This document shows positions 3,466-55,486 of a stretch of 64,000 nucleotides of DNA, one piece after another. Position 1 is the first letter of the stretch; every line of letters begins with the position of its first letter. A program made the translations under genes and the position numbers. Source of the stretch: Rhizophagus irregularis (Eukaryota). The stretch covers positions 2,356,001-2,420,000 of the forward strand of contig NC_089432.1 in NCBI RefSeq assembly GCF_026210795.1, in the 5' to 3' direction. The notes beneath the pieces were generated by a model that made no database searches, had not been told where the DNA came from, and saw nothing but the letters and a program-made list of their open reading frames with translations.

Positions 3466-4033
3466 TAGGGATGGCAACGGTCGGTCATGGTCGGTCATCG
3501 GTCAGTCATAACCGGTCAAGAACCTTTGACCGACCGACCGACCATTTGACCGACCGTTTGACCGACCGTTTGACCGATCATTTTTTTTATATTTTCTCAG
3601 CGTTTTTATTAAGGAAATTGAAAAAACGTGCGAAAACATTTTTTTTTATTAAATTATTAATAAAAAACATGCGAAAACGTTTTTTTTTATTAAATTATTA
3701 ATAAAAAACGTTTTCGCAACATTTCTATTAAAATAATTAAAAAAACGTTGCGAAAACGTTTTATTTTAATTAAATTACTAATAAAAACGTTTTCGCAACG
3801 TTTTTTGTTAAAATAATTAAAACCGTTTGCGAAAAACGTTTTTTAAAATTAAATTATTAATAAAAAACATTTTCGCGACGTTTTTTATTAAATTTTTCAT
3901 AAAAAAATTTGGTCGGTCAAACGGTCGGTCAAACGGTCAGTCAAACAGTCGGTCAGAAGTCTTGACCGACCGATATCGGTCACGGTCATGACCGGTCATA
4001 ATCGGTTAATGACCGTGACTGTTGCCATCCCTA
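3466..4033. mobile_element. hAT-family MITE
   Basis: TIR TAGGGATGGCAAC; perfect 8-bp TSD GTTGTATA (3458-3465, 4034-4041); internal GACC/GGTC repeats; related copy at 51779-52163. Confidence 0.93.
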
Positions 4034-10421: not shown

Positions 10422-11171
10422 CTATTTTTTGTCTCCTCGATTCACATCAGAAACTATCGGGATAAAAACATTCTTCTCATTACAAGTAAGGGCGATATGT
10501 TCACGTGATTCATGGACATCATAATTGTAACGTTTCAGACACGTCCGGCTCAATCCAATCTCCCTATGCTTGTAATCGCTTAAAACCGCGAGATTCTCAG
10601 TGATTACACAATCAGGGGTTAGTTTGATTGACACACCTTTTACCATGCCGAATGTCCTACCAGAACCCGGAGCGCCAGATATGTTATGTGTAATACTCTT
10701 GTCGATATCCAACCCTAATTCTTCAGCGGCTTCCCTCTGAATAAAAGACGCGTTAGCACAAGTGTCTGCTAAACACTGAATTGCTATCCCATTGACCTTC
10801 CCATCCAGCGCTAAAAGATCTTTAGTATTCTCCAAACGAGCTATGTCAATATCCATCGGGTCATCTTCCCTGATATCCTCTTCTTGTTTTTCCTCAACTA
10901 GGTCTTCCGGAATCTCCGTACTTTTACGAGCAGACTTTAATTCTTCCCGAAGAATCTCGCGGAGTAATTTTCTAAAATCTGCAGACCTTAATAAACTTAA
11001 TGAATCATTTTTGGTGACGGCTTTTATAAGTGTGGGCTTACTACTAGTAACCTTCACAGGAATCTTAATAGGAGTCATTTTAACTGATTTTTTTGGAACA
11101 GATTTAAGAAGTTTCGAGATACTTACACCCTTATCCGAGTTTACTTTTTTTTTGTACTTCGAACTGCACAA
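10422..11171 (-). CDS. Retropepsin-like aspartic protease, probably expressed by -1 frameshift from Gag
   Basis: LDGKVNGIAIQCLADTCANASFIQREAAEELGL and IGLSRTCLKRY; overlaps the gag end at A AAA AAG TAA in the -1 frame. Confidence 0.85.
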   Translation of the reverse strand: MCSSKYKKKVNSDKGVSISKLLKSVPKKSVKMTPIKIPVKVTSSKPTLIKAVTKNDSLSLLRSADFRKLLREILREELKSARKSTEIPEDLVEEKQEEDIREDDPMDIDIARLENTKDLLALDGKVNGIAIQCLADTCANASFIQREAAEELGLDIDKSITHNISGAPGSGRTFGMVKGVSIKLTPDCVITENLAVLSDYKHREIGLSRTCLKRYNYDVHESREHIALTCNEKNVFIPIVSDVNRGDKK

Positions 11172-12636
11172 ATCCGAAAACCACCTTCCTCATCGGGAAC
11201 AATTTTCAAGTCATCAAAACTCGCGGTATTAGTATCAATATCCATAGCATCATCATTAAGATCGAGGTTTCTCATTGCTCGGGCTAATTCCAGATCATCG
11301 CGTCTATCTTTAGCCTTCTGAAGTCTCTTTGGAAATCTTTTAGACGTCTCATATCCCATAATAAGATCAATAACATGTTGATCATCCTCACTAGTCCACT
11401 CAGGAGCATCAGGGTCACCAGGGTCATCACCAAAATCATGATCTACATAACCATCATCCCAATCAGGATCCTGATGATCCTGAACAACGCGTGGCCGTGG
11501 CTTTGGCCGAACAGGTTTAATCTGTTGTCTATAGACCGGTGGTTTACGAACTGGCTTAGATGCTTGTAATTGTTTAAATTGTGCCTGGAAATTCTTGGTA
11601 AGTTCCTCGGCCTGCGCCTTGAGCAATTCTTGTAATCGTTCTTGAGTAATAACGTCTGTCGACCTTTGTATTACAGCACCTTCGTGTGGAGTCACGGGAT
11701 GAGTATAGCCAGCCAATTCCTCTTTTTTAGCCTTTTCAATACCCTGGCGCCTTTGTAATCCATAGAACATTTCACCCTTTCGTCGCTCAAGATCACTCAA
11801 TCTATCGATTAATATATTAAGAGGCGCCGCCCCGATTCTGGAAGCTTCAATAACGTTTTCCGGCAAAAGTCCTCTATAGAACTGGTCAGTAACCATAATT
11901 CGATTATATCCTACAATATCCCCAGCCCTCTCAACTCGCTTATAGTAAGATCGAACAGGTTCACCTTGTTCCTGGTAAAGATTACTAAATCGTATCTGAA
12001 GTCTTTCTTCCACGACGGTTGGAAAATTTGTACGCATATGCATAAATGCTTGATCCAGGAGAATCCCCTGTAAGACTATTGGTTGATTCTGGACAGCAGC
12101 ATTAAATGGACCTCCATGATTTCCCAACCCATTAACGGGTTGATGAGTAGGACGTCCGCCCGCACGCCTCCACTGCTCTTCAACTTTAAAATTCGTTCTA
12201 ACGATATCAGCGCGTGATGGGAAAAATGCATCTCCAACGGTTACCGCCGCATTACCTGCAACCCTTGAATATACATCAGCATCAGACCCGGGTAAGTAAG
12301 TACCAACATGTAATCCATTAGCAACCTCAGGAACAGCTAAAGCTCTGAACGCTCGGCGAGTAGCACCGGCTCCACCATTTGCAGCAGCCACTAACCGAAT
12401 ATTCGAGAGTTCCCAATTTTTTCCAGTAAGTTCTGCATCAAACCACCTCGCCGCTTCATCTCTCATACAGCTACGAAGAACCCCATCACTCGCACCCGAC
12501 CAGGAGGCGCACCGGCATCGTCCAATGGATCAATACCAACGGTATTAATATACCCTAAAAAGTTATCAATAAAAAGATTAAGATCTTCATCTTCCCGACC
12601 ATGAAATATGGGGGCAGCTATACCAACGGCAGCCAT
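11141..12636 (-). CDS. gag: Retrotransposon Gag (capsid)-like protein, 1-nt frameshift at the G-run 12481-12484
   Basis: PIFHGREDEDLNLFI, MRDEAARWF, LYQEQGEPVRSYYKRV (MHR-like), QFYRGL. Confidence 0.8.
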
Positions 12637-33315: not shown

Positions 33316-36300
33316 CAGTGTTGTGAAGTGATATTAAATGACACAAATGACATTAGTGACATGTCACGTATCATTATGTCATTTCAGTGAGTAAATGACA
33401 ATATTATGTCATTTGAAATTATGTCATGTGAGCTGTAATGCCGGCCAAAATTATTTAATATAATAAATCTTTATTATAGCGTATTATTTAATAAAAGTAA
33501 AAATTACTTAATCACAAATTCACAATTTATTATTAAAACATATTAACTGGAGCTTCTAAAGTCTCATTAAACAAATCAAGTAACTTCCATTTAGCCAATG
33601 GATTATCTGCTGGATGAATACTTTGTCCACCTATTTCAAATTCATATGTTTCTTCGCCTATAACTTCTGTATTATTTATATTAATTTCTGCATTAACCAT
33701 TTTAATCCAATCTTCAATTATTTTAGTCCATTGTTCAGAATTAATATTATCACTATTATTAGTTTTTTCAAAGGTATCATTAACATTACATTCATCAATA
33801 ACAGAAGTTTCTTCTAGTTCTTCAGTATCACTATCGTTAAAAGCATTAAATGTGAACTCATTATCATTTGTGTCTTCTTCATCTGATTGGTATTCTTGGA
33901 TTGGTTCAGCAATATGTAATCGTTTATATTGTCGTTCAGAAATTTCTATATCATCACGTTTTCTTTTACATAATATATCACTTCGCAATTGAGCCATAGC
34001 CAAAACTTTCTTATGCTACAAAATTAAAAATGTATAATCTTTTGTTAATGTGATTTTGCATAATATAAATTTTGGTAAAATACACTTACATGTAATTTAT
34101 TTCGGCGGGTTGAATGTAAAAAACCCATATTTGACCAAAGACGTTCCACTGAAGCTGCATTAACGCAGATCCCAAAAAGATGTAAAGCTAATTTTGAGAG
34201 TTCAGGTGCCAATCCTTTGGCAGATTCCCAGAAATCAATAATATTTTCTTCAAACTGATTATAAGTTTCAGAATTAAAAGGAAAAAGCTCACGTTGATAT
34301 GATAAATAATCACGAAGGATTCTTTTTGGTGTTTCATTAAACCATGCTTGATAGTAATATATAAGCCATTGTCCAAAATGTGTATAAGAAATATTTTTAG
34401 CAGAAGAATTAAATTTTGAAACTCGATATTTTGGATGAAGAACAATTGAAAGTAATAGTAATGGCTGTTCCCACTGTGCCCAGCGTGATTCTAATCTTGC
34501 TATCATGCAATTACCAAATTCTACGTTTTTGTGAGAAGAAAATATTTTAATTATCCAACCAAAGCAGTGTGCAATTTCATATAGGCGCGCAATATCCTTT
34601 TGTAATTTATTTAATGCGCTGCATATTGGTAATAATAAATTTTGAAGTTCAAATAGTTGGATCCAAAATTCTGGATCATTAATAATTTCAATTATGTCTG
34701 AAGGGAGACATTTGTTTTCATTATTTGAATTAGTTCTATAACGTTGACGAGATACTCCAGCTCGAGAAGTACTTGGAGTTCCAATACGTTCAGGAGAGCA
34801 TTTTGTTATTAAAGTCTAAAAAAATTAATAAAACAGGTATAAAAATTTTATTTATTGATTTATTGAGCAACTTGCCAAAATTATAATTCTCACCTTTAAT
34901 GCTGCTTCTGTTTTTAAAATACTGTGAAAACAAAAGTAGTAACTATTCCAGCGTGTTTCCCCTGGAGTTATCAATGCTATTGTTTGACCATAGCATGAAG
35001 TTTGTTCATTTCTTAACAATCCAGTGAAATAAGGAGAGGAGTGAAAATAACTAACAATACGAACTGCATTTTTTGATACTTGCTTGTATTGAAGTGATTC
35101 TTTAAAAATATCTCCTACAACCAAATTCATCTGATGGGCCATACAAGGTAAAAATACCTTACTTGGATATTCTACTCTTAATTGACGTCTAAAAAAGCAA
35201 AAAATTAAGATTTTATTAATAATATTCTATACCATAAAATATATAATATAAAATTGTACTCACCTTGCTGCAGCATATTCTCCAGCTGAATCAGAAACAA
35301 AACAATTGATTTTTATTTGTTTCAATTCGGCATTATTCATCAAATTTTTAATTAACATTTTAACATCTTCAGTTTTAGATCGTTGATCACTAATATCCTT
35401 AGCTCCCCAAATTAGTGTTTTACCAGATGAAGTAATAAGTACAACCCCAAAAAGATGTTCTTGTTTAACATTTGTCCAGCCGTCAAAAGCTGCAGTAACA
35501 CCAATTGCATCACCTTTTGCCTGCTCTACAATTGATATAGATAGTTGGTTTGCAGATTTAGAAAGAATACGATTACTGATGGCATGACGTCCTGGAAGTT
35601 TCAATGCTGGAGCAATAAATCTAAAAACTTCTTGTGTTTCTTTATTTTCCAGAAATGTAAATGATAAACCATTTGATACCATCATTAGTAATACCAGATT
35701 TTCAAAATGAGGAATGTCTTTCTTAGAAAATGGCCGGGATACATATCCTGATAAGGTTGATTGTTTAATAATTGAATTAGATGGTGCAGCAGTTGTAGAT
35801 TTATCAGTTTCCATCTCACTTTCATTTATTATTGCTTGTGTTTTATTTTTTTTCTCATCTTCAGGTACTTTACGTGATAAAATTTCTTCTCTTTCACTCT
35901 CATGATATTCATGAGCAAAATTTTCACATTTTTTCAGATGATTATGGCATAATAATGCTTTATTAGATACGAAACATTCAGGTTTAGAAATAGCAATAGG
36001 TAAAGTATGTTTTCTTATACAAGAAAAACACACTGCTTTTTTATTTGCTTTAGGATTATCTGGTGTACATAAATAAAAAAATTCACGAAAATTATGCTTT
36101 TCTTTCATTTTAATTTTATACAAACTCGTATATATTGAAATAAGAAATTTGTTATGAAAAATAATGACGAAACGCGAGAATCACAAAAAAGATCGATAAA
36201 TCTTAGATTTAACAAACAAATAATAATAAATTGTTAAATTTCCAGATTAAATAAATATCACACACTTGTCATTCCATTTTTGGATATCATCAATTTTAAG

Positions 36301-36534
36301 TTATGCTTTTTGGAGTTTCGATCAACAAGTTATTATGAAATGTGCCACTAAATAGATTAATCATCATAATGACAATCATAAATGATATTGTCACTTAGAA
36401 ATGACATATGTCATTTTGTCATTTGTCATTTGCAAATGACATTTTTTTTAAATGACATAATTTCTTATATCATTTCAATGTCATTTAAGGTCATTTGAAA
36501 TTTGGTCAAATGACAATGTCATTTAACATCACTG
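33316..36534 (-). mobile_element. hAT DNA transposon, apparently autonomous
   Basis: CAGTG termini, 8-bp TSD GTCATACA (33308-33315, 36535-36542), AATGACA subterminal repeats. Confidence 0.92.
33533..36108 (-). CDS. hAT transposase, 4 exons (36108-35264, 35188-34894, 34815-34090, 34015-33533), ~782 aa
   Basis: BED-like finger, FDGWTN, VSDSAGE, PCMAHQMNL, TRWNS, SVERLWS; GT-AG introns give one continuous frame. Confidence 0.92.
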
Positions 36535-37068
36535 GTCATACACAGGTCGAAGGGGCACCATTGTCCAAAATTCAAAAAATGCAAATTCCACATTTTTCTG
36601 GAAAATGGTGGGAAATTGTGGAAAATGCTGCATTACACTGAGCAATTTTTTGGAATAGCATTGTTACAACATTGTCCGATTTAGCAAATTTTATGAAAAT
36701 TTGGGAAAATGCTACATTATATCTCAAATGTAACATTTCGTAACATTTCGCCCTATAAAAAATATGTATATGGTTTTTATACTGTATATACGTATTTTTG
36801 ATACAGTTTGCATTTTTACATACGGCATATCAGTATAATGTATACTGTTCGCAAAATGTGCTTAGTAAAAAATACAATAAAGTATACGGTAAACATACTG
36901 TGTGATACGGTATATTAAATTCATACGTCTATAACGTATATCATTTCTACTGTATATCAGTATTTTGTATACGGTTCACAAAAATATTGTAAATAAAGGA
37001 TATGGTATACGTATTATTCTACAGTATATTAAAATTCAAACATTTATAACGTATTTTCTACAGATATA

Positions 37069-38640
37069 TACAGGTCAAATAAATAAAAATCAGATTTTTG
37101 CCCTTTTTAATATGGCTGTCTGATTTTTTGGCAATTTTAATATAATATTTCCGATTTTAATAAATATTTCTGATTTTAATATAATATTTCTGATTTTTAA
37201 CATGAAATTGCCGATTTTTGGTTATTTGTAATAGGATTTTTCAATTTTAATATATAACATGTGATTATGTATTACGGTTTAATATTTATTTATTAACTTA
37301 GATTTTTTTTTTATTTCAGTTATAATTATTTTTTTGCCTTAAAAACTTTACTAAAATACTTTTTAAATACTTTATAAAATAGAATTAAAATATTTTTTTT
37401 CTTAAATATAAATACATTTAAATTAAATAACTCATAATTTAAAATATAAACAAATATTATATTTTTTTTACATATATTTCAAAGTATGGTTTGAGCATTT
37501 TGGCTGAAGTAAATCTTATTCTTTTAATTAAAAGTAGTTTAGTAAGTTTAAAACTGTTAAGATCATAAAAGTACAGTTAATATTTTTGGAATTATTTACA
37601 TTTTTTATATTATACAGTAGTATTAAGTTACAAATTTTTTTACCTTCAGAGCGTATTTTGAGATCTTTAGCCAAAGTAAATCAACTTCTTATATTAATTG
37701 TAAGTTGTTCGGCAGGTTAAAATCTACTTGGATATTAATTTTCACGAAGGTACAGTTAATACTTGATGAGTTATTTACAATTTTCACAACAGTATTCATT
37801 CACGACTTTTATTTTTTTCATTTTGTCACTTCAGAGCGTATTTTGAGCACTTTATCCAAAGTAAACCAACTTCTTATATTAATTGAAAGTTGTTTAGCAT
37901 GTCAAAATCTACTTGATTATTAATTTTCACGAAGGTACAGTTAATACTTGATGAGTTATTCACGATTTTCACAATGGTACTCATTTACGAATTTTATTTT
38001 TTTCCGTTTTGTCACTTCAGAGCGTATTTTGAGCACTTTAGTCAAAGTAAATCGACTTCTTTTATTAATTGAAAGTTGTTTAGCATGTCGAAATCTACTT
38101 GAATATTAATTTTCACGAAGGTACAGTTAATACTTGATGAGTTATTCACGATTTTCACAACGGTACTCATTTACGAATTTTATTTTTTCCATTTTGTTAC
38201 TTCAGAGCGTATTTTAAGCACTTTAGCCAAAGTAAATCGATTTCTTTTATTAATTAAAAATTGTTCAGCAGCTTAGAATCTACTTGAATATTTATTTTAA
38301 TGAAAGCACAGTTAATATTTGTGGAGTTATTAATTTTTTATAATTGTGCGTATTACATTAAATTACAAGTAAATTTATATTCTTAATGTATTTTGTTTAA
38401 AATTTAATTATTTAAGATTAGTTTTTTATTTAATATTGCTTAATAAAATATTTTTTAAATTTTAATTCAATATTACAATATAATTTTTTATAAAAATATA
38501 TATTTCATAATGTATATACAATTTTTTTGTATAGTGAAAAAACTGAAAAATGTGGTTAAGAATTGGTAATACGGCTGTAAAAAGTCACAAATCGGATAAA
38601 TATAGCTAAAATCAGCCAATTTTTATTTATTTGACGTGTG
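37069..38640. mobile_element. Non-autonomous TIR element (CAC-type terminus)
   Basis: TACAGGTCAAATAAATAAAAAT / CACACGTCAAATAAATAAAAAT inverted ends, with ATA on both flanks. Confidence 0.75.
37645..38340. repeat. ~185-bp tandem repeat, about 4 copies
   Basis: ttcagagcgtattttgag recurs at ~37645, 37830, 38016 and 38201. Confidence 0.9.
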
Positions 38641-38953
38641 ATAGAGTAAGTTTTTCTACACTTTAAAGCATCAAACAATACTAGTATCTGCTAATATGTA
38701 CTACCCAAAAACTCACTGATGTAAAATCACAATTATTAAAAAATTCACAAGAATTTTTGTTAATACTGTTTAATTTTTAAGTTCAAAGTCCGATTGATAA
38801 TACTAAATTCAAAACTCAATTATAAATCATTTTTATAAATTATAATTTAAAAATTAAGCAGTATTAAGGAAAATTCTCATGAATTTTTCTTAATACTACT
38901 TAATTCTAATTTAACTAATTTAGTATTAAGGTTTTAATTTAAAAATTAAGCAG

Positions 38954-39866
38954 TGTTACCGGTTATGGCGGTAAATAAGAGTCGGATAACTATCAATATT
39001 ATATCGTATAAACACTCAATTATCAACGGGATTCTTACTCAATACTACCTATCTTGGTATTCCGGTATTGTTCGTTAAGAATCGTCAAGATAACAACTAC
39101 AAAATACGATAAAGAATAGTACGCAATAGTTATAACAACAACTGTTATATGACTGTTAGAAACAACATGTAATATTGACCAAAATATAACGATTTTATTA
39201 GTAGATGTAAATTCGGGTCTTTACAACAAGGTGATAAAAGTGACAGAAAGGGATAGGAAATATATCTTAAAGATATTCAGTGACAAGATAACTAAAAAAA
39301 AAATATAGCTATATGGTGACTACTCTATCAAAGAGTTGGCAGAAGGTATATTTATATCTTATTTTATCTAACTGTCATCTCTTTTTCCTGTCATCAAGGC
39401 AAAACCTAATCTATAGATGTCTATTGATGGGCTATTGATTTCCTATTGTCAAAGTTTCATCGTGATATTTCGTAATATATCAATACGATTATACAATACA
39501 ATACAATTATAAGCCACTTTAATAAAGTACAAATGATAATTTTAGACGATTAATTACTATTGAGCTAATTTCCCCACAATAACTTCTAATAAAATCTTAT
39601 ATATATAAACAATACAAATAAAGAAAATAAATAATATAAACAATAATAATATGAATAATATATAATACTACTTATGTAAATATAATAAAATAAAATAAAT
39701 AAAATCAATATTTTCTATTAGGTTAATCCGGTATACACAAACCAACAGTTATATATCGATATAAATCGGCACATAATATCACCAATTGACATGTACACAA
39801 ATGTACCAAATTTCATCGGATCACCATATAATATCGGAAATCACATGTGCAAAAATTCGCGTAACA
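38954..39866. mobile_element. Solo LTR
   Basis: TGTTAC...GTAACA ends, 4-bp TSD GCAG; removal restores the tandem repeat unit. Confidence 0.88.
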
Positions 39867-40092
39867 GCAGTATCAAGGAAAATTCTTGCGAATTTTTCTT
39901 AATACTGCTTAATTCTAATTTAACTAATTTAGTATTAAGGTTTTAATTTAAAAATTAAGCAGTATCAAGGAAAATTCTTGCGAATTTTTCTTAATACTTC
40001 TTAATTCTAATTTAACTAATTTAGTATTAAGGCTTTAATTTAAAAATTAAGCAGTATCAAGGAAAATTCTTGCGAATTTTTCTTAATACTGC

Positions 40093-41197
40093 TTATATCT
40101 GCCAATTCGTGAAATTAGCCAAACATAAAGATTTGCACATTTTAACAAGAATTATGTTTCACAAGCTTAAATTGTATGTGTTACATAATCAGATGATCTA
40201 AATCTATCAAAAAATAAAAAAAAATTTTTTAACGTTTATTCAAAAATAACAATGGCAACTACTTTCTTTTTCAATCACTTTTCAATCACTTTTCAATCAG
40301 ATTTTTGTTAGGTGACTTAGAAAAGTTTATAGGCATATATAGCAGGTTTTTTTTAATCAGTAAGTAAGAAAACAAATATTAATAATTTTTATTAATAAGA
40401 AAAATCTTTTTTCATTTATTTTTAACCTTATTTCCTTCTTTTTTTTAGTAAAAATATATACAAAATAAAAATGTGAGTTATGATTTAGAGTTTTTGAGAT
40501 GTTTTTTTTTGTTTTTTACTATACTAATTTTATTCTACTTGTTAATTACTTTTTAAAATTGATTTTATTAATTTATTCAATTTAAAACAGAAATGGCAAA
40601 TAAAAACTTGTTAAGTAAAGTAAAAAGAGCCCAATATACCTGTAAAGATCATCTTTTGGTAAGAATTATAATTTTAAAAATTTTTGTGTCAGAGTTTTAT
40701 TCAATTAACAAAATCGTTAATATCTCGGCGTACATGTATGCTAAACACATATATTTATATTCATATGAAAGCCCAGAATCTACTCTACCTGAACGAAAAA
40801 AGATTATTCAAATCGAATTACTAGATGTGAAGATATTAACGATCAAAGTCAAAGATTAAAAATAAATATATTGAACGTAATTATTCAGCAACTTGTGATC
40901 TAATTCATGTGATATTTGGTTTATGGATAGCTCTTGATTACCTCTTTCTAATGAATATAAAATCATTCGTCTAGCATACATACACGTTAAGTTATTCAAT
41001 ATTTTATCATGACAATTATATTTAAATTTTTTAATTTTAATGATATTATTAAAAAAATCAAAAAATAATATAATCAAATCAATTTTATTTATATCAGCGG
41101 TGTGAATCTATCATTTTCATGTAAATTGTATTAGCATTTTCTTAATAAAGTTAGTTTTTTGAATATAAAAACTTAATTCCATAAATCAGCCCATATG
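40093..41197. mobile_element. Unclassified ~1.1-kb insertion with imperfect inverted ends
   Basis: Interrupts the 92-bp repeat; ends tatatctgccaattcgtgaaatt / catatgggctgatttatggaatt match only partly; TSD unclear. Confidence 0.5.
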
Positions 41198-44100
41198 TTA
41201 ATTCTAATTTAACTAATTTAGTAGTATTAAGACTTTAATTTAAAAATTAAGCGGTATCAAGGAAAATTCTTGCGAATTTTTCTTAATACTGCTTAATTCT
41301 AATTTAACTAATTTAATATTAAAGCTTTAATTTAAAAATTAAGCAGTATCAAAGAAAATTCTCACAAATTTTTCTTAATTCTAATTTAGCTAATTTAGTA
41401 TTAAGGCTTTAATTTAAAAATTAAGCAGTATTAAGAAAAATTTTTACAAATTTTCTTATTAAAAAAAAGAACTTTTAAATTACTAATTAAACTTTAAAAA
41501 CAATCTGTATGATTTAAATTTTAAAAAAAATACTTCTGCTTTTTAATTTTCGCATTTCTATATTTAACCAATTAAAATTCAGCTGATCGCCGATCACATG
41601 CATTAATAACACGTTATTGTTTATTTTTTGTTTATTTTTTCTTTTCTCTTCTTTTTTTTTAGAAAAAAAAAGACAATAAAAATGAATACCAAAATTATTT
41701 TAACATATAATAATAAAAATCAAACAAAAAACTTATTTTGATAATATATAATATATATATTTGTATCAAACTACTAATTATACAAAAAGTGATATGCATG
41801 TATATCAATTAACAATTACTTTCACTAATATCTCTCTGGAATTGTAATGGTGAATTTTAACAATATTAATTAAACAACTATATGTACACCGTTTTATGTT
41901 TTTATTTTTATATTAATATTATATGTTAACATATATTAATTATATTTTTTTTACTTTTATGTATTTTATTTAATTTTTTTAATATATTACTAACATTACT
42001 ACTATCGTTTTATTACTTTTTTATATCTAACTAATATATTAATAATATTACTAACTTTTTATTATTTCTTTTTTATATTTAAAATAATGATAATATTACT
42101 AATTAAATTTCTTTTTTTTTACTAACCTTTTATTATTCCTTTTTTATATTTAAAATAATGATAATATTACTAATTAAATTTCTTTTTTTTACTACTAACC
42201 TTTTATTATTCCTTTTTTATATTTAAAATAATGATAATATTACTAATTAAATTTCTTTTTTTTTTGTTTATATTTTGCTAATATTATTTTTTTTACAAAT
42301 AGTATATTATTTTATACTAGTTTTTTATTTATATTATTTATAAAAAAATATTTGTATATTTAATATTATTTAATAAAAATTTTATTGATTATAAATGCAT
42401 TTTAAATTCTGTTTGCAAATATAAAATATACGATTTAATTGAATAATATATACTATTTATCAGTACAAAATATGCAGTTTAAACTGAAAAAAAGTACTGT
42501 TTATCAGTATAAAATATACGGTTTATCCTGGAAAAGTATACTGTTCGCAATATAAAATATAAAACAATATACTGTTTATTGGTATAAAACATACGGTTTT
42601 TATACTGTTTACAAGTATAAAACATACGGGTGAAACTGGAAAAATATACTGTATGCAAACCGTATATATGATACGGTGTGCAGAATACCGAATATATACA
42701 GTATGTGAAAATACTGTAATTATATGGTAATAATACTATAAATATACTGTTCGCAAAATATGAAAATACAGTATACTAACCATATATATATTTTTTATAG
42801 GGTCGTAACATTGTTATAACATTGTCATTAAAATCAAATTTTGCTTTTTTTTTGTCAAATGTTCCAATTTTCTTGCAAATGGTGCATTTTTATGAAAATT
42901 CCACATTTTACCTCAAATGTAATAACATTTCATAAAATTGTTATAACATTGTCAATTAAAATCAAATTTTGCTTTTTTTTTGTCAAATGTTCCAATTTTC
43001 TTGCAAATGGTGCATTTTTATGAAAATGCCATATTTTATCTCCAATGTGATGTCATTGTAACAACATTTCATAAAATTGTTATAACATTGTCAATTAAAA
43101 TCAAATTTTGTCAAATATTCTGATTTTCTGGCAAATGGTGCATTTTTTATGAAAATTCTATATTTTTTTGTCAAATGTTGCATATTTTCAGTAAATTTTA
43201 CATTTTTTTGGTCAAATATTTCATTTTCGTCAGAATGTTAAAATATTACAATTTTTTTTTTGGAAAATGCTCAATAATATAGCATTACACTGGAAAATGT
43301 AGCATTTCACCAAATTACACTAAAAAGTATCACAATTATCACATTTTTTGGAAAATTCCACATTACATTAAATTATACTGAGAAATGTGGCACTATACTA
43401 AATTATGTGGAATTGCACTAAAAAATACCACAATTACACTAGACAATGTAGCATTACACTAAAAAAGTACCACAATTATCATATTTTTTAGAAAATTTCG
43501 CGTTATACTGGAAAATGTAACATTATGCTAGAAAATGCGGAATTGCACTAAAAAATGCGGAATTGCGCTAAAAAACACAAAAAAATACTACAATTACACT
43601 GGATAATGTAGCATTACACTTAATTACATTAAAATTGTTATGATAATTTTTATTTATTTGTAAAATTACGGACATTATTACATTTATAATATTTATATTC
43701 TAACGCATTATTTAACATTAAACACATTGTTAATATTAACAATGTATCAACACGATGCATGTGTTGTGATGTTGTTTAATTTAATACTAAACCTTACTAC
43801 TGAAGACTCCCTCTTTTTGTCACTATAAACAGGCGGAGGGAGCAGCAATGGCTCTCCCCCTATAGGTACTTTATGGCCTCTACCTGTTTATAGATGAGGG
43901 GCTTTTCGTAAAGTTATTAGATAGATATATATATATGTATATATATAAGTATATATATACATCTATCATAATTAAATTAAAATTATAAAAAAAAAATAAT
44001 AATTTCGGGGGAAAAAGCCCCTATTTATATAAAATTATGTATCACGTGTATCACGTGATATTACTTAATAATTACCGCAGCTTCAGCTGCGGTATAGCGA

Positions 44101-44395
44101 AAAAAAATTAAGCTTTTTTTAGTAAAAAGCTTAATTTTTTCTCACGATCTTTCAATTTCAACTTCTTTTTCTCCCCTTTCCCATTTCGTTTCCCTCCTTT
44201 CCCTCTTTCGTTCTCCCTTTCCCATTTCGTTCTCCCCTTTCCCATTTCGTTTTCCCCTTTCCCTCTTTCGTTCTCCCCTTTCCCTTTTCTCCCCTTCCCT
44301 TTTCGTTCTCCCTCCGCACTTTTCCCTTCCCTCTTTTTCTCCCTTCCCCCTTCCCTTTCCCCTTCCTGGAATCATCTTTCAGTAAAAACGAAATG

Positions 44396-45008
44396 GTAAG
44401 TTTCGAAGCGAAATGCTTCGAAACTTTTTTAAAATTTTTTTTTGATTTTTTGTTGTAAGGAAACGTTTCTAACATTTCCTTTTTTTTTAGGACTTTTGAC
44501 CTCAGAATTTATAAACGGTTAGTTTCGAAGTTTTTCAAAACTTTTTTTTTTGTTTTTTAGGAAACTTTTCTAACGTTTCCTGTATTTTCTTTTTTTTTGT
44601 AGGTCTTTCGGCTTGTTTCGTTCAATTCGGAATATTGAAATCAGTAAGTTTCGAGGCGTTCACCTCGAAACTTTTTTAAAAAAATTTTTTCTTTTTTTAG
44701 GAAACATTACTAATGTTTCCAATAATTTCTTTTTTTATAGGTCTTTTTGGCGTACTTGACTTAGAAAAATGAAATGGTAAGTTTCGAGACGTTCACCTTG
44801 AAACTTTTTTTTCTAAAATTCTTTTTAGGAAACATACTGACGTTTCCTTTCTTTTTTTTTTGTAGAATTTCAGCGTTTTGACTTTGGAAAACGGGAAACG
44901 AAATGATGGTAAGTTTCGAAGCATTTCACTTTGAAACTTTTAAAATAAATTTTTTTTTTTGCTTGTTATAAGGAATGTTTTTAACGATCCTTTATTTTTT
45001 TTGTGTAG
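44396..45008 (+). other. Micro-exon/intron array A (5 related introns)
   Basis: GTAAGT...CTAAC-like...T-rich TAG units of 85-100 nt separated by 27-43-nt exons. Confidence 0.75.
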
Positions 45009-45399
45009 GTCTTTCGGTATGCTTCTTCATCAAGAAGTTACGGGAAAAATGTTCATTACATGTATATTTTTGCAAATCATTTACATCATAATTTTCATTA
45101 TTTTAAATATACATGTAATATTAAATGTTAATGAACATCATCAATGAGATTTTTATTGTGATGTGCAGCATAAAATAATAAATATTCAATGTACATCACT
45201 TTGCTACAATAAAAATATGATTACTAAATACTAATTCATTTTCTTCTATTTAACTATTATTTTATTTTTACAAAATCTGGGACTACAAGCATACATCAGT
45301 TAGCAGAACAAATTACAAAAATAATACAAAACTAAACTATTGCAAATTCGTCCAACCTCCTAAGCACTGGAAAAGGAGTTGCCCTGGCAATTATTCACA

Positions 45400-46365
45400 A
45401 AGAACCCTAGGCATGACCAGGCTAACTAACACCAGAAAGAGATATAATGAAAAAAAAAAGTGAATAAAAATATCGTGAAATATTGTGGCTATAAAGGTCC
45501 GTTGTTGTTTTTTATTTGATTTGAGAGTAAGTCATGTCCCAGTATAGGCGGGAAAATGATGGTTGCTATGGATTCAGCAGCTGAAACGTAAGATGTGTTG
45601 CTAACTGTAGTGTTGGATTCGTGATCAGAAGGTGGTGTCCTCTGAAAGAATATATTAAGATCATTTATCCTTGTTTGAGATTACATATTGCATGTCAGCT
45701 TTAAGTTGTTTGGTAACAATGTAACATCTTCCACAATGAAAGTGTGTTTCGCTTTGTAATGTTGATAGAGTTTGAAAGTACAGGTATAACCATAGTTATA
45801 TTGAGGTATGAAGCTGATGTCAAAATAGCGTCTAACTTTATAGTTAAAAAGGTTGATATTGTATGTGATTTAATAATATAATCGTCAGTTACCTTTGAAA
45901 TCAGGAGGTAAAGGTGGTAAAAGTTTTGCGTTTGCAAGTTCTACGTATCCAATTTTTCATTAGTTATTTGAATTTAGCATTAGCGTCCCATAAGTATTTG
46001 TAAATTGAAACCTGGGAGCCTGATAATTAATCTTCTCAGGTAGATGTTGAATTTGTTTAAAATGATAGGATCTGGTATCCTAGCCGATGGTTGTTTAATG
46101 ATAAAAGGTTTAATAAATCGGGATTGTTGTTCTTGACTAATAATGCTTCGTGTCAAGCGATTCCATCTTTCTATTTGTTGAGGTGAACGTATAACGTCAA
46201 AACGTAATGAGGAATATTGTTTGTAGTAAGGTCTGTGTATTGTAGAATGAAGAATCTGGTTTTTCTAGAGTACGATTATATTTTTTAATCAACCCGGTAT
46301 ACCCTATCAGCTGTACCAAGACGACTTGTTTGATGTGTTTTTGTTTTCTTTGACAGCATCAATAT
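45400..46365 (-). pseudogene. Degenerate ORF remnant of unknown family
   Basis: Coding-like composition with broken frames, lying antisense between intron arrays A and B. Confidence 0.3.
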
Positions 46366-46656
46366 TTAACTATTATTAACGTTCAGAGTCAAAATATTGA
46401 TCAGTATCACGTGATCAATTTGCCGATCGATCTTTTTTTTTTTTAATTCGATAAAAAAAAAAGTTTTTTTTAAGGTTCACTCCTCTTCTATAAATAAAAA
46501 AAGAGTTTTTTTTTGTTCGTTCACTGCTATGGCGCTCTCCATTATCCAGGTTGTTCCAACGAAGGGTGGGTCTGCCTGTTAGATTTTAGATCTATATACT
46601 TTATATTTAGTTTTCTATAATGTTTTCGTATTCTTTCTACTGTATCTGCCTTCTGA

Positions 46657-48210
46657 AGTAAAAATAAAAATAAAAAAAAAAGTTTTTTAAATTTTTCTCT
46701 TTTTGTAGATATCAGTCCTTTGGCTTTGGACTTCAGACATTAACTTCTCAGACTTTAGTTGGATTTCTCGACGTTAGGGTCTTCTTTTGTAGGTCGGCAT
46801 CTTGGGTAAGTTTTGAAAATTTAAATTTATTTTTATTTTTTTATTATTTTGTTTTTTTTTGATTTTTTTGATTTTTTTTGCAGGTATTGAACTTTCCAAA
46901 TTCTGAACGATATGATTGGTAAGTTTCGAAAGTTTAGTTTACTTTTGAAACTTTTTAATTTATTAAACTTTTTTTTTTCGGTCTTCTCCTTATTAGGTCT
47001 CTTAGGCTCCTTTCTTTACGTTTTCCTTTAGGTATGTGGGTTGGGAGTGTGAGTTTGTTTTGTGTGTGGGTAGCCTTTTTTTTGCAGGTATGGTAGATTG
47101 AGCTTCACAGACTTTATTTTTAAAAAAATTGTTTCTTTTTTCTTTCTTTACTTGATTTATCTTTTTTTTATAGGTATCGGTTGGTTTTGGCTTTGGGTCT
47201 TGGATCTGGTAAGTTTTAAGGCGAAAATTATGTATTTTTAAATATTTTTTTTTGTTTTTTTTTAAATTTTTTCTCTTTTTTTTTTGTAGGTATTAGTTAG
47301 TTCGGTTGTAAATCTTTGATCTGGTAGGTTTCGGGGGTGAAGATTTTTTGAAATTTTTTTTCTTTTTGTTTTCTTATTTTAATTTTTTACTCTTTTTTTT
47401 ACAGGTATCGGTTGATCCAGGTTGGAATTGGATGGTGAAGTTTCGAGATAACTTTATTTAATTATTTTTTTTTTAAACTTTTTATTTTTTCTAATTTCTT
47501 TTTTATTTTTTTTTTTTAGAAATCCAGCTCCTTTGGCAGTGTAATTCGGCAAGGTTCACTTCAAACCTTTGATTTTTAAATTTTTTTTGTAGAAATTAAA
47601 AATACAATCATCCTAGAAAATATTAAATCACCTCTTAATGAAAACGAAAAATTTGGAGAATTTAAATGAGGTAAATGAAGTAATTAATTTTCTTTTAAAA
47701 AAATTTTTTTTTTAATTTTATTTTTTTTGTAGAAATTTGGTTCTTTTGGCCTTAGGATTCGAGGTTGAATTTGGTAAGTTTCAAAGCAAATGCTTTGAAG
47801 CTTATATTTTTTATTTTAATATCTTTTTCTTAATTTTAATTTTCTTACTTTTTTGTAAATATCAGTGTATTAGGATCCAGAATTGAATTTAATTTTGGTA
47901 AGTTTATAGGTGTCATTTCAGGTTGTTTTCGTCATTATTTTTTTAAAAGTGAATTTTTTTGATTATTTTTTAGGTCTAGGTTTTTCAAAAATTCAGGCTG
48001 AACTTTCTGGAGGGTAAGTTTCGAAGTTTATTTCGAAACTTTTTTAAAGTTTTGTTTAATTTTGAAGAAACTAACCATTTCCTTTTTTTCGTTTATTTTG
48101 TAGGAATCGTCTTCAGTTTTTAGGTCAACTTTTTGGGTAAGTTTCAAAATTTTGCTTCGAAACAATTGAATTTTTTTTTAATTAATGTTTCTTGTTTCTT
48201 TTTTTTCAGC
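46657..48210 (+). other. Micro-exon/intron array B (roughly a dozen more diverged introns)
   Basis: Recurrent GTAAGTTT(C/T) donors and poly-T (G)TAG/CAG acceptors about every 110-130 nt. Confidence 0.65.
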
Positions 48211-48868
48211 TTCAGGCATATTCTTCTCTCAGTGGCATGGTAATTCTAGTGGACTTCTAAGAAAACGAAATACAAGGACTTTCTTTTTTCAAGATTATTC
48301 AACTTTGCGTTCAGGGTTCTTTTGTATTTCGATTTGATTTGACTTGGATTTTTTTTGTAGATACTAATTTCAACTTTGATTTTGCATTTATTTGGACTTT
48401 GATTTATCTTGGTTGGAACACAATACCCTTCGATTTTGTTATTTATTTACCTTTCGTTAGATGATGATGTAATTACCCTTTGATTTTGTTGTTTTTACCT
48501 TTGGATGTAATTATCTTTTTTACCTTTACACTTTGGGCATGATTACACTTTGATTTTATTGTTATTTACCTTTATTTTTTAAATATAATGTTTTATATTA
48601 GTTTACTAAGTAACGAAAAAAAAAAATTAATCATATTGTAAGCAATAAATTAATAGATTATAATAAATTTTGCGTAAATAAATCAATTAAAAAATAATGT
48701 ACATCGTTAATGGACATTGAAATTTGTTGATGCACATCAAATGTTGTGACATCAGTAGTACATTGCAGGGTCCGATGTTCAGCATTTCTTTATGATGTAC
48801 ATCAAGTGACCGATGTACATATGATGAACATTTTTCCTGTGACTTCCTGATGTTTGGGACTCGAAATG

Positions 48869-50235
48869 GTAAGTTTCGAAGCATATGCTTCAAAACTTTT
48901 AAACAATTTTTTTTAATATTTTAGGAAACGTTAACTAACGTTTCTTTATTTTACTTTTTGTAGGTTCCGGATGTTAGAATGGTAAAAACGACCCGGTAAG
49001 TTTTGCAATGTTGCATTGCGAAACTTATTTTTTTAATTTTTTTTTTAAAGAAATGATACTAACGTACGTTTCTTTTACTTTTTGTAGGTTAAACACTGAA
49101 GCTATGAGGGGAATTTATAAGGAATTATGTAAGAAATGTTTTACGTGTTTCTTCTGACTTATCAGGGCAAGGGAAAACTGAATGGATTAAAGAGAATAGT
49201 TTCAGTAAAGGGAAATTTATACGCAGCTTTTTAATAAGCGATGGTACCGGACGTTTGGATAATGGAAATAAAATGAACCGGTAAGTTTCGCAACATTGTG
49301 TTGCGAAACTTAATTTTTTATTTTTTTTTATTAAAAGAAACGTTAACTAACGTTTCTTTTTTACTTTTTGTAGGTTCCGGACATTAGAATAATGGAAACG
49401 AACCAGTAAGTTTTGCAATGTTACATTGCGAAACTTAATTTATTAAATTTTTTTTTTAAGAAACGTTAGCTAACGTTTCTTTTTTTTTAGGAACGCCGGA
49501 CAAAATTACGACCCAGACTTTGGGTGAAAGGTAAGTTTTTCATTTTTTTTTTGTATTTATTTATTAAATAACTTTTTTTTACGAAACGTTAATTAACGTT
49601 TCAGTTTTTTTTATAGATCACGGCTTCGCCTCCAGGACAAGATTTTGAAGGTATTACCTTCGAAATCAATTTTATTTTTTTTTTGTTTAAAGAAACGTTA
49701 GTAAACGTTTACTAGCGTTTCATTTATCTTTTTTTTTAGTTCATTTTCCGGTCACCTTCTAGAAGAATTTTGAAGGTAAATATAAAAACCTTTGAAATTC
49801 TTTCATTTTTTATTTTTTTTTATTACAATGAAACGTTTACTAACATTTCAGTTTTCACTTTTTAGGTTCCAGGGCACCATTTCAACATTTTGAAGGTATT
49901 AGAACTTCGAAATTATTGGATTTTTGTTATGTAATGAAACGTTATTTAAAGTTTCATTTATTTTTTGTTTTTTTTGTAGGTTAAAAGAATGGAAAAAATG
50001 AAAAGGAACGGGGAAAATGAAAGGGGAAAAGGAAAACGAAAGGTAAAGGTAAAGACAAAAGGGGAAAGAGAAGATGAAAGGGTTTGAAAGAGAAAATGAA
50101 AAGGGAAAGAGAAAGGGAAAAATGAAATGGAGCGGGAACAAAATGAACATTTCGAAGGTATACTTCGAAATGTTTTTTTATTTTGATTTTTTTTAATGAA
50201 ATGTTTCTAACGTTTCTTTTCTTTTTTTTTTGTAG
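48869..50235 (+). other. Micro-exon/intron array C (9 related introns)
   Basis: Donors near 48869, 48996, 49281, 49406, 49531, 49651, 49776, 49896 and 50158; GAAACGTT..(CT)AACGTTTC around the branch point. Confidence 0.75.
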
Positions 50236-50649
50236 GTTTTCACTGGCTTCTATTTCGGCACTGGACATTTGATACATAAATAAATTAGAGGTGCGGATTA
50301 TCCATGGATGGAACATCAGATATCTGATGAATATAGACCAATATAGATTCTCATCGCTAAATAATAATTGTGTATTTTTTAATAAATAATATAATAAATT
50401 ATAAATTATGTAAAATTATTAAATCAGTGTTTTAAATTGTCACAGTGTTTACACTAAATTGTTTAAAATTATTACTAAATTTCACTCAATTGTCCAAAAT
50501 TATTGCAAAATTGTCTCCGTAAATGTTGCATTTATACCGTTTACACTCAATTGTCCAAAATCGGTAAAAAATTTTTACTCAATTGTCCGAAATTATCCTA
50601 AATTCCACTAAATTATTCAAAAATTTAGCTAATATTTACCGAAAAAATG

Positions 50650-51345
50650 CAAAATTCACCACAATTTGCATTACATTTGCATAACATTGCCGAAAAAGTC
50701 ACCTAAATTTTCAACAATTTACATAACATTACTAAAAATATATTACAATTTACCACAATTTGCATTACGTTTGCATAAAATTACTAAAAATTTACTTAAA
50801 TTCACCACAATTTGCATTACGTTTACATAACATTACTAAAAATTTAACTAAATTCACCACAATTTGCACTTCATTTACATAACATTACTAAAAATTTACT
50901 TAAATTCACCACAATTTGCATTATGTTTACATAACATTACTAAAAATTTGACTAAATTCACCACAATTTGCACTTCGTTTACATAACATTACTAAAAATT
51001 TAACTAAATTTCACTACAATTTGCATTACGTTTGCATAAAATTACTAAAAATTTAACTAAATTCACCACAATTTGCATTACGTTTACATAACATTACTAA
51101 AAATTTAACTAAATTCACCACAATTTGCACTTCATTTACATAACATTACTAAAAATTTAACTAAATTCACCACAATTTGCATTACGTTTGCATAAAATTA
51201 CTAAAAATTTAACTAAATTCACCACAATTTTCATTACGTTTGCATAAAATTACTAAAAATTTACCTAAAATTCACCTCAATTTACATTACGTTTGCATAA
51301 AATTACTAAAAATTTAACTAAATTCATCACAATTTGCAAAGATTT
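50650..51345. repeat. ~52-bp tandem repeat (about 13 copies), subterminal array of the CACTA-like element
   Basis: aaattcaccacaatttgcattacgtttgcataaaattactaaaaatttaact repeated. Confidence 0.92.
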
Positions 51346-51589
51346 GCCTAAAATTTTCCACAATTTAATGATAATTTACTGAAAAATTTCTCAACATTTG
51401 AATTAGGAATTCTGTAGGAATTCCGCCATTTTGACAAAATTTGCCAAATTGTAAGACCTCCATTATCCCAAAATTGTAACACAATTTACCCCAATTTACC
51501 GGGATAATTCTCAATTTGCCAGAAAAATTCCAGGCAAATTTTGCGACAATGACATCTGTTCGACCTGTGATAGGTGGAGTGCTTCACAC

Positions 51590-52680
51590 AAAGTATATCC
51601 TTATTGAGTCCGGTCTGATGATCTTTTTGAGTCCAGTCATGTCAGTTTTTAGCACAGTCATGTGAATTTTGATGCAGACCAAATTTTTACTTTGATCAGA
51701 CTTCGCTACCATCGAACTGAGTTAATTATGCCAAGTCCTGTGATGTTGATCAATCGGACTGAACTAAATTTACATGACTAGGGATGGCAACGGTCGGTTA
51801 TGGTTGGTCATCAGTCAGTCATAACCAGTCAAGAACCTTTGACCGACCGACCGACCGTTTGACCGACCGGTCTGACTGACCAGTTAACCAACTGTTTAAC
51901 CGATCCTGAAAACGTTTGCGAAATGTAATTTAATAAAAAAATATTTGAAATACTTAATAAAAAATGTTTTCGCAATGTTTTCTATTAAAATAATTAAAAA
52001 AACGTTTGCGAAACATTTTTTTATTAAATTACGTTTCGCAAACATTTTCAGAATCGGTCAAACGGTCAGTCAAACGGTCGGTCAGAGGTCTTTGACCAAC
52101 CGATATCGGTCACGGTCATGACCAGTCATAACCAGTTAATGACCATGACCGTTGCCATCCCTATACACGACTGATAGTATTTAATATTATTATAAAATAA
52201 CATTAATATTAATATTAACATGAAAATTTTATAACTAACATTTGGTATTACTATTAGTGAATTAGTTGTAATATTATTTTTATTATTTTCAGTAATGTCA
52301 ATTACATCCATGTTTTTCTTTATAAAATCAAATACATGAAAAATTGAAAGAAATACTTTGCAAATTTCATTTGGAAGGCTTACAAATTTGAAATTATTAA
52401 TTAAAATTATTAATTATATAATATTAATGACATTATAATTATTCATTATGGTATAATATTAATATCTTATTAAATTAAAAAAATTTTTTTTTAATGACTC
52501 ATTATAAAGCGAATGGCAAAAAAAAAGCCCAGCTTTATAATTAATCGGTCCCAAGTGATTTTAAGTGGATCATCGGACCGCATGGTCCAAGGGTCTGGAC
52601 CCAAATCCACATGACTGTACTAAAAATTGACATGACTGGACTCAGAAAGATTATCAGACCGGACATTGTAAGGCATAACT
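51590..52680. mobile_element. Non-autonomous long-TIR element, MULE-like
   Basis: ~70-bp imperfect inverted ends (gtccggtctgatgatc... / ...gattatcagaccggac); GCTTCACAC duplicated at 51581-51589 and 52681-52689. Confidence 0.7.
51779..52163. mobile_element. hAT MITE, same family as 3466-4033
   Basis: TAGGGATGGCAAC TIRs; TSD TACATGAC/TACACGAC. Confidence 0.9.
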
Positions 52681-55032: not shown

Positions 55033-55486
55033 AAGGTTCAAAAGTTAAAGAGGAGGTCTTTCCGTAGAGGCCACCAAGTGGTCCTCTCTCTTCAAGGATA
55101 AAAAGTGTTTGTTGGAAAATTAGTTTTTACTGCGGACTACTAACAAAAAAAACGGAAAGGGAAGAGTTTTTTTTTTCATTTTTAGGATTCTTCATATATT
55201 AACGTTATCTCACGTGACTTGCCGGCAAAATTATTCTCCAGGAATTGCTTATCGGTTGTTGTTTTAACCGGAATTTCGGAAATCTTTCCACTTGGATAAT
55301 TTTGTGACAGTTAACTTTGGCGTTCAGTGACATCATATTATTTATAAATAGTTAAATAGTTAAACAAAAAAAAAAATTATTATTTATAAATAGTTAAACA
55401 TAAATAGTGAGACAAAAAATATTTCTATTTTTTTTCAATTTTTAAATTTAAATTCCGCAGTAATAATTTTTTTTTCGTACCCAACA

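Follow-up and report, generated by a model that had tools for sequence, protein, structure and literature searches.

A 64,000-nt window of the Rhizophagus irregularis genome (contig NC_089432.1, positions 2,356,001 to 2,420,000 of the forward strand; coordinates below count from its first letter) holds three plus-strand arrays, here called A, B and C, of short introns separated by micro-exons, all lying within a DNA transposon. These arrays are real and recurrent, and apparently have not been described before, representing the non-coding intron-array cargo of a non-autonomous DNA transposon. Judged from their sequence, they very probably form a cassette that is really spliced. More tentatively, and with somewhat less than an even chance for the account as a whole, this tandem non-coding cassette would make its carrier pass as a host gene and so escape silencing.

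Array A (44396..45008, +) consists of five GT-AG units of 85–100 nt with micro-exons of 27, 41, 36 and 43 nt; four of its units carry a hairpin at the donor and four carry one at the branch point. Array C (48869..50235, +) comprises nine GT-AG units of 78–95 nt with six internal exons of 30–40 nt and two long exons of 193 and 178 nt. Most of its units have a branch-point hairpin, while donor hairpins start from position +3 in C1–C4 and hold the donor within loop or stem in C6–C9. Array B (46658..48209, +) is more decayed, its 13 candidate units including one GC donor, one donor with an additional base, one acceptor lacking AG and three units of 44–62 nt, and the branch-point hairpin is mostly absent. 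Between 47032 and 47410, several acceptors of array B run straight into a GTAT donor-like word (AG/GT), like recursive splice sites. The coordinates and hairpin sequences quoted in an earlier note on this DNA proved exact on re-checking, and its estimate of ~25 units compares with the 27 candidates found here; its remark that many of them bear hairpins holds for A and C, but not for B. Perfect hairpins occurred at ~5 per kb in A and C, at 1.3 per kb in B and not at all in their shuffles, and a fold z-score below –2 (relative to base shuffles) was reached by 11 of the 14 units of A and C and by 4 of the 13 of B.

Relatives of the arrays were obtained from one metagenome scan with a two-hairpin motif, which returned 29 loci, 24 of them judged to be arrays; the five others (L002, L003, L012, L025 and L028) were dropped as single chance matches. 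Many of the 24 loci overlap, and ~10 families were distinguished by eye. Their base composition and the sequence they have in common with transposons of the window point to a fungal origin. The motif itself matched three times in the window, compared to no match in 100 shuffles; control scans gave one phage contig among viral contigs and two single matches in 596 Gb of prokaryote genomes, and a second motif had no match in viral contigs. An intron caller trained on the window units identified 186 array introns (132 non-redundant), and removal of 11 units with odd donors, a length of >105 nt or non-YAG acceptors left a working set of 121. The 5′ parts of three loci (L011, L015, L029) contain long tandem runs of acceptor plus exon without a donor, upstream of full intron units.

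Throughout the arrays, splice signals follow one another in order on one strand: donor, branch point ~25 nt from the AG, poly-T and YAG. A YTAAC-type branch motif was present in 110 of 121 introns at a median distance of 25 nt from the intron end, and the exact U1-type donor GTAAGT in 77 of 121, versus one of the nine introns of the window's coding genes. For a test independent of the caller, branch-type palindromes were located symmetrically and oriented by T content only (n = 98 non-redundant, including six from unspliced repeats). The first downstream AG within 30 nt was a YAG for 86 of these 98, mostly 13–21 nt away (shuffles: mean 41, maximum 53), a strong donor lay upstream of 72 (shuffles: mean 10, maximum 19), and the loop completed CTAAC on the T-oriented strand in 55 cases, on the other strand in four. 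Units devoid of hairpins (L008, L009) retained the splice signals. There is thus strong sequence evidence that the array units are U2 introns; R. irregularis also has minor introns, and the U12 donor, commonly given as RTATCCTT, was absent from the donor hexamers of the 132 units.

The spliced product would be non-coding. The 83 non-redundant exons measure 19–56 nt (median 34 nt) and show no phase bias (lengths modulo 3: 29/25/29), and for all 17 spliced chains the frame with the fewest stop codons had no fewer of them than shuffles allow (lowest P = 0.21). Spliced array A contains stops in all three frames, as previously claimed (6, 2 and 1 for the internal exons). No open reading frame (ORF) of >63 amino acids (aa) was found within 500 nt 3′ of 21 array ends and none of >60 aa in the spliced A+C model, and a six-frame Pfam scan of 45300–46400 gave no significant match. 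The open spliced frame and exon phase bias of a protein-coding gene are accordingly missing, in keeping with the non-coding character ascribed to the arrays in the earlier note.

Hairpins are placed with precision. Among 95 perfect hairpins in 87 exon-plus-intron units, 85 cover the donor or the branch A, nine lie elsewhere in the intron and one lies in an exon; of 73 branch hairpins, 53 have the branch A at the second position of their 3′ arm. The nine introns of the window's coding genes harbor no such hairpins, and contain 0–1 CpG each versus a mean of three in array introns. Several hairpin origins have led to the same two sites, given that the branch hairpin of one locus (L018) is built on an entirely different stem and that donor hairpins come in three geometries. 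Donor stems differed between copies at 5 of 194 sites, compared to 83 of 875 in exons (P = 0.0008; one pair per family), and splice positions at 3 of 234, a figure partly biased by the caller; conservation of branch stems between copies was not significant (14 differences in 167 sites, of which a single pair that had lost a hairpin by deletion contributed 10). Inner donor stems paired in 19 of 34 distinct segments versus 21% in permutations. In an alignment of 15 related units (one row misaligned), nine of 19 pairs had changed on both sides, with 93% of cells paired. These stem changes fall into few blocks, there being four inner-arm types among 19 paired inner stems. An alternative hairpin with the donor in its loop (55 of 121 units) was rejected: it exceeded base shuffles but not exon-end swaps between units, and thus reflects a shared consensus rather than unit-specific pairing.

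All three arrays reside in an outer element spanning 36541–51569. Its left terminal inverted repeat (36541..36572, +) starts with CACAG and its right one (51538..51569, –) ends with CTGTG; the two match at 23 of 32 nt and are flanked on the outside by the same 3-bp sequence, ATA. Inverted ends of the form CAC(T/A)(A/G), a 3-bp target duplication and subterminal repeats (here a 52-bp unit in 11.9 tandem copies at 50718..51338) are hallmarks of CACTA/CMC transposons, and the ends together with the ATA duplication bear out the earlier suggestion of a carrier with CACTA-like termini. No transposase ORF was seen within 36541–51569, and the element's end motif was found in none of the metagenome loci. 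More generally, non-autonomous CACTA/CMC-EnSpm and Pack-type elements have CACA/G-type inverted ends, 3-bp duplications, subterminal repeats, no transposase and captured gene pieces. By this general description the outer element has those features in common with them, and differs in its interior, where a promoter-like motif precedes an intron array that has no reading frame, similar arrays standing beside other types of ends: CCCTA-type in L010 and L017, and TAGTG hAT-like in L008, L026 and L027 (one end per contig). Two further elements are nested within it. A CCCTA…TAGGG transposon (36751..42802; 3-bp target duplication TCG) sits upstream of the arrays. An inserted element (45028..48852; 40-nt terminal inverted repeats, 85% complementary, no clear target duplication) contains array B and has apparently interrupted what was once a single A+C array, since locus L013 passes from A-type into C-type units without it.

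How such a cassette might serve its carrier can be outlined as follows. A CACGTG promoter would drive RNA polymerase II across the array to an AATAAA end, and the spliceosome would excise the units. Two promoter-like CACGTG motifs (44043..44057, +) stand upstream of array A and another (46408..46413, +) upstream of array B, their function being putative; one locus (L030) contains a homologue of array A's promoter region plus the array start, and CACGTG also occurs upstream of the window's coding genes at 55211 and 62048. The predicted first exon (44130..44395, +; start position putative) is a pyrimidine-rich repeat, whose first ATG would open an ORF of three codons once spliced. The predicted last exon (50236..50400, +) contains AATAAA at 50279, 50381 and 50393, a weak signal in AT-rich DNA, and no ORF. 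Just 5′ of the promoter-like motifs of array A is an (AT)n run (43921–43959); in early-diverging fungi, methylated ApT is a mark of active promoters.

Growth of the arrays would proceed by tandem copying of whole exon-plus-intron units, and the arrays would also pass from one non-autonomous element to another. Tandem duplication, rather than intron insertion, fits the findings: neighboring units are related, a two-unit block has been duplicated (a 110-nt repeat, C1–C2/C3–C4, at 86%) and no intron-less form was detected. Among 212 junctions there was no true precise one, all 15 raw matches being artefacts of repeated acceptors. Dense co-transcriptional splicing would then sustain the transcription of a copy, hold its CG methylation down and impede nuclear RNA interference (RNAi), so that the copy stays open to transposase supplied in trans; a non-autonomous element would gain from such openness. 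The hairpins, finally, would be fold-back copies of donor and branch-point sequence, probably produced by template switching, and would persist because they delay the engagement of U1/U2 or confine splice-site pairing to their own neighborhood. Observed/expected CpG ratios of 1.9 in array A and 1.8 in array C, versus 0.65 in the hAT transposon and 0.60 in the kinase gene of the window, suggest a CpG-richness as in long-unmethylated DNA. In R. irregularis, CG methylation is lower on those transposable elements that are expressed (PMC8647823), and in worms and plants the presence of introns impedes nuclear RNAi (PMC5554785).

Several observations weigh against this account of gene mimicry. The copy in the window has decayed and is disrupted by an insertion. 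Two protein searches with spliced gene models gave one and two matches, all of them unspliced read-through ORFs. Work in yeast leads one to expect that hairpins over the donor and the branch A impede splicing; this agrees more with a stall than with efficient intron removal. Moreover, the hairpin frequencies in the metagenome set (64 of the 121 units with a donor hairpin and 73 with a branch hairpin, against shuffle means of 0.9 and 2.3) are upper estimates, because the loci had been picked by a hairpin motif. Stem mismatches revealed no G·U excess, G·T and A·C standing at 16:27 (P = 0.13) and 18:16 (P = 0.86), or 34 versus 43 in total, a symmetry that decayed copies would likewise give. Similar CpG palindromes occur at the same density in an unspliced hAT-like miniature inverted-repeat transposable element (MITE; 3466–4033). 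Its CpG ratio reaches 2.8, so a high CpG content needs no splicing, and the ratio in array B is 0.9. In Cryptococcus, unspliced introns trigger silencing (cited in PMC6643885, PMC5554785). The remark of the earlier note that stems stay paired while their sequence changes is borne out, and donor stems are conserved between copies, but the lack of a G·U excess speaks against upkeep at the RNA level. Covariation, which it had put forward as a check, is present in a weak form only, in view of the balanced G·T and A·C mismatches, the block-wise changes and the palindromes of the unspliced MITE.

The opposite effect on silencing must be weighed as well. Strong donors and branch points masked by hairpins could stall spliceosomes, and RNA-dependent RNA polymerase and Dicer would then turn the transcript into small interfering RNA (siRNA) directed at the element family and at any host genes captured by it. 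Among the options of the earlier note, a splicing switch may likewise still apply. We regard this as rather unlikely, and the hairpins, clustered as they are over donor and branch A, fit it at least as well as gene mimicry. Stalled spliceosomes are known to yield siRNA in Cryptococcus (cited in PMC6643885, PMC5554785), and 41% of R. irregularis small-RNA loci lie in unannotated DNA (PMC8647823). Furthermore, the window copy carries a captured host gene piece and two exons able to pair over ~150 nt. The former is a frameshifted fragment of a Glomeromycota AAA/‘E3 ubiquitin ligase’ gene (49089..49245, +) directly 3′ of a 3′ splice site, with 60–84% identity to 35 proteins; all hits bearing organism names were from Glomeromycota. 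The latter are the first exon and a purine-rich long exon (49980..50157, +), its imperfect reverse complement (alignment score 85; 200 shuffles: mean 44, maximum 72). This duplex is, however, of low complexity (–130 kcal/mol versus –115 ± 6 for shuffles) and found in the window copy only. In addition, array donors are near-optimal, unlike those of weak transposon introns, the high CpG content suggests low long-term methylation, and a self-silencing cargo hardly explains the spread across several element types. The underlying principle, that the splicing state of a transposon transcript decides its silencing, is shared with the intronic barrier to nuclear RNAi (PMC5554785) and the stalled-spliceosome siRNA system SCANR (cited in PMC6643885); both were described with regard to ordinary introns, whether in genes, in transgenes or in coding transposons, and neither involves a non-coding array amplified for the purpose.

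It is also unlikely, if conceivable, that the arrays are a repeat at the DNA level, with an inert RNA: an ancestral intron–exon unit would have expanded in tandem, its palindromes arising and being repaired through template switching or serving as protein-binding sites. The balanced mismatches agree with this, as do the block-wise stem changes, which template switching predicts (PMC8794818), and like palindromes with A/T spacers occur both in the unspliced MITE and in other subterminal repeats. Such a repeat would not be expected to retain a strict one-strand splice geometry across families with unrelated exons, nor splice positions that vary far less than exons (the difference being partly caller-biased). 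The different branch stem of L018 and the three donor geometries still fall on splice signals, and the exons are without palindromes.

CACTA-type elements have many-exon transcripts, and the arrays might represent the remains or an untranslated region of a many-exon transposon protein gene, encoding a TnpA-like or low-complexity protein. A zinc-knuckle-like ORF and a Tet_JBP gene do occur near arrays in L023, their linkage to the arrays being putative. Given exon lengths devoid of modulo-3 bias, shuffle-level stops in every chain, the shortness of ORFs after the array ends and the lack of a significant Pfam match in 45300–46400, we consider this very unlikely.

In architecture the arrays resemble non-coding small nucleolar RNA (snoRNA) host genes such as GAS5/UHG, with their many short introns, tiny and poorly conserved exons and lack of an ORF. 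The earlier note had named an intron-derived small-RNA source among its explanations, and a host of snoRNAs, mirtrons, agotrons or stable intron decoys is highly improbable on the present evidence. The only matches to Rfam were two weak ones to miRNA models, far below gathering scores and outside the arrays; among 121 introns, none had a C box, two had an H box plus ACA, and four showed end-to-end pairing. The arrays thus share the layout of GAS5/UHG, but lack C/D or H/ACA features and are transposon-borne. Intron size (78–91 nt) and structure are like those of agotrons (PMC4869172), and short structured introns of similar length likewise link the arrays to mirtrons. Yet array introns are U-rich, with 24% GC, rather than GC-rich like agotrons, their ends are unpaired, and donor stems of 8–18 bp (most 8–14 bp) are too short for a pre-miRNA and depart from the single mirtron hairpin with ~22-nt arms.

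A propagating family of introner-like introns inserting at new sites, which had also been proposed, can be given hardly any credence: although many related structured introns recall fungal introner-like elements (ILEs; PMC3609843, PMC8469720), the units are tandem and carry their own exon, no empty site was present in 212 junctions, none of the nine introns of the window's coding genes was alike, and whole-intron or terminal symmetry and terminal inverted repeats were lacking.

The arrays do share with ILEs and with the sister (stw)introns of Hypoxylaceae (PMC3609843, PMC8469720) the occurrence of multiple related U2 intron copies with predicted stable structure. Fungal ILEs, however, are single insertions in coding genes and fold end to end (PMC3609843), whereas the arrays consist of exon-plus-intron units repeated in tandem inside non-coding transposons, with one local hairpin at the donor and another at the branch point. 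No prior description of such arrays was found in the literature, including the available text of 10.1101/2022.10.19.511543 and PMC10639083, with thin coverage of subscription papers; the main text of PMC8647823 never uses the word ‘intron’. Curated transposon libraries in supplements may already list these elements as unclassified repeats, which make up ~24% of the R. irregularis genome (PMC8647823). As an undescribed part of this fraction, the arrays could also cause gene-finding programs to report spurious orphan genes. Provided that they are spliced, their many natural copies allow one to ask whether introns protect a transposon from RNAi and methylation or expose it to them; hairpin-bearing and hairpin-less copies occur side by side, so that RNA, small-RNA and methylome data sets already in existence could give the answer. 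A bolder and doubtful extension is that several DNA-transposon superfamilies of mycorrhizal fungi share a portable splicing cassette with hairpin-gated U1/U2 sites, amplified solely to steer, via the spliceosome, how the host's silencing tells self from non-self. Were this to hold, transposons would have a cargo of a new kind, from which new introns could arise naturally.

A few minor observations concern the metagenome relatives. In L023 (708–2189, –, and 10877–11797, +), the Tet_JBP dioxygenase gene (E = 1.7e-09) follows one array, and the zinc-knuckle-like ORF lies beyond a divergent intron run on the other strand. L022 and L023 have in common a hairpin with a T-rich loop, which lies 3′ of the array's predicted poly(A) region in each locus and may be an element end. 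Late exons of two array families (L015, L016, L018, L020) share a ~60-nt coding-like piece, possibly a second captured fragment. In L013, positions 1–290 form a GC-rich, bacterial-like start fused to fungal-like DNA, so that this contig is probably chimeric.

The remainder of the window contains a Sel1-repeat kinase gene, a hAT transposase, a Polinton-like element and a long interspersed nuclear element (LINE). The hAT transposase element (33316–36534) adjoins the left end of the outer element, and its 8-bp target duplication overlaps that end. The hAT-like MITE is present in two copies (3466–4033 and 51780–52163), with an interior of tandem CpG palindromes split by A/T tracts; these are worded like the intron hairpins, but without splice signals. 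The Polinton/Adinto-like element (7965–31175) has 452-nt inverted ends (99.8%) and ORFs for DNA polymerase B, a D5-type primase-helicase, an A32 ATPase and an integrase-chromo protein, and is broken by the LINE, which encodes reverse transcriptase and RNase H.

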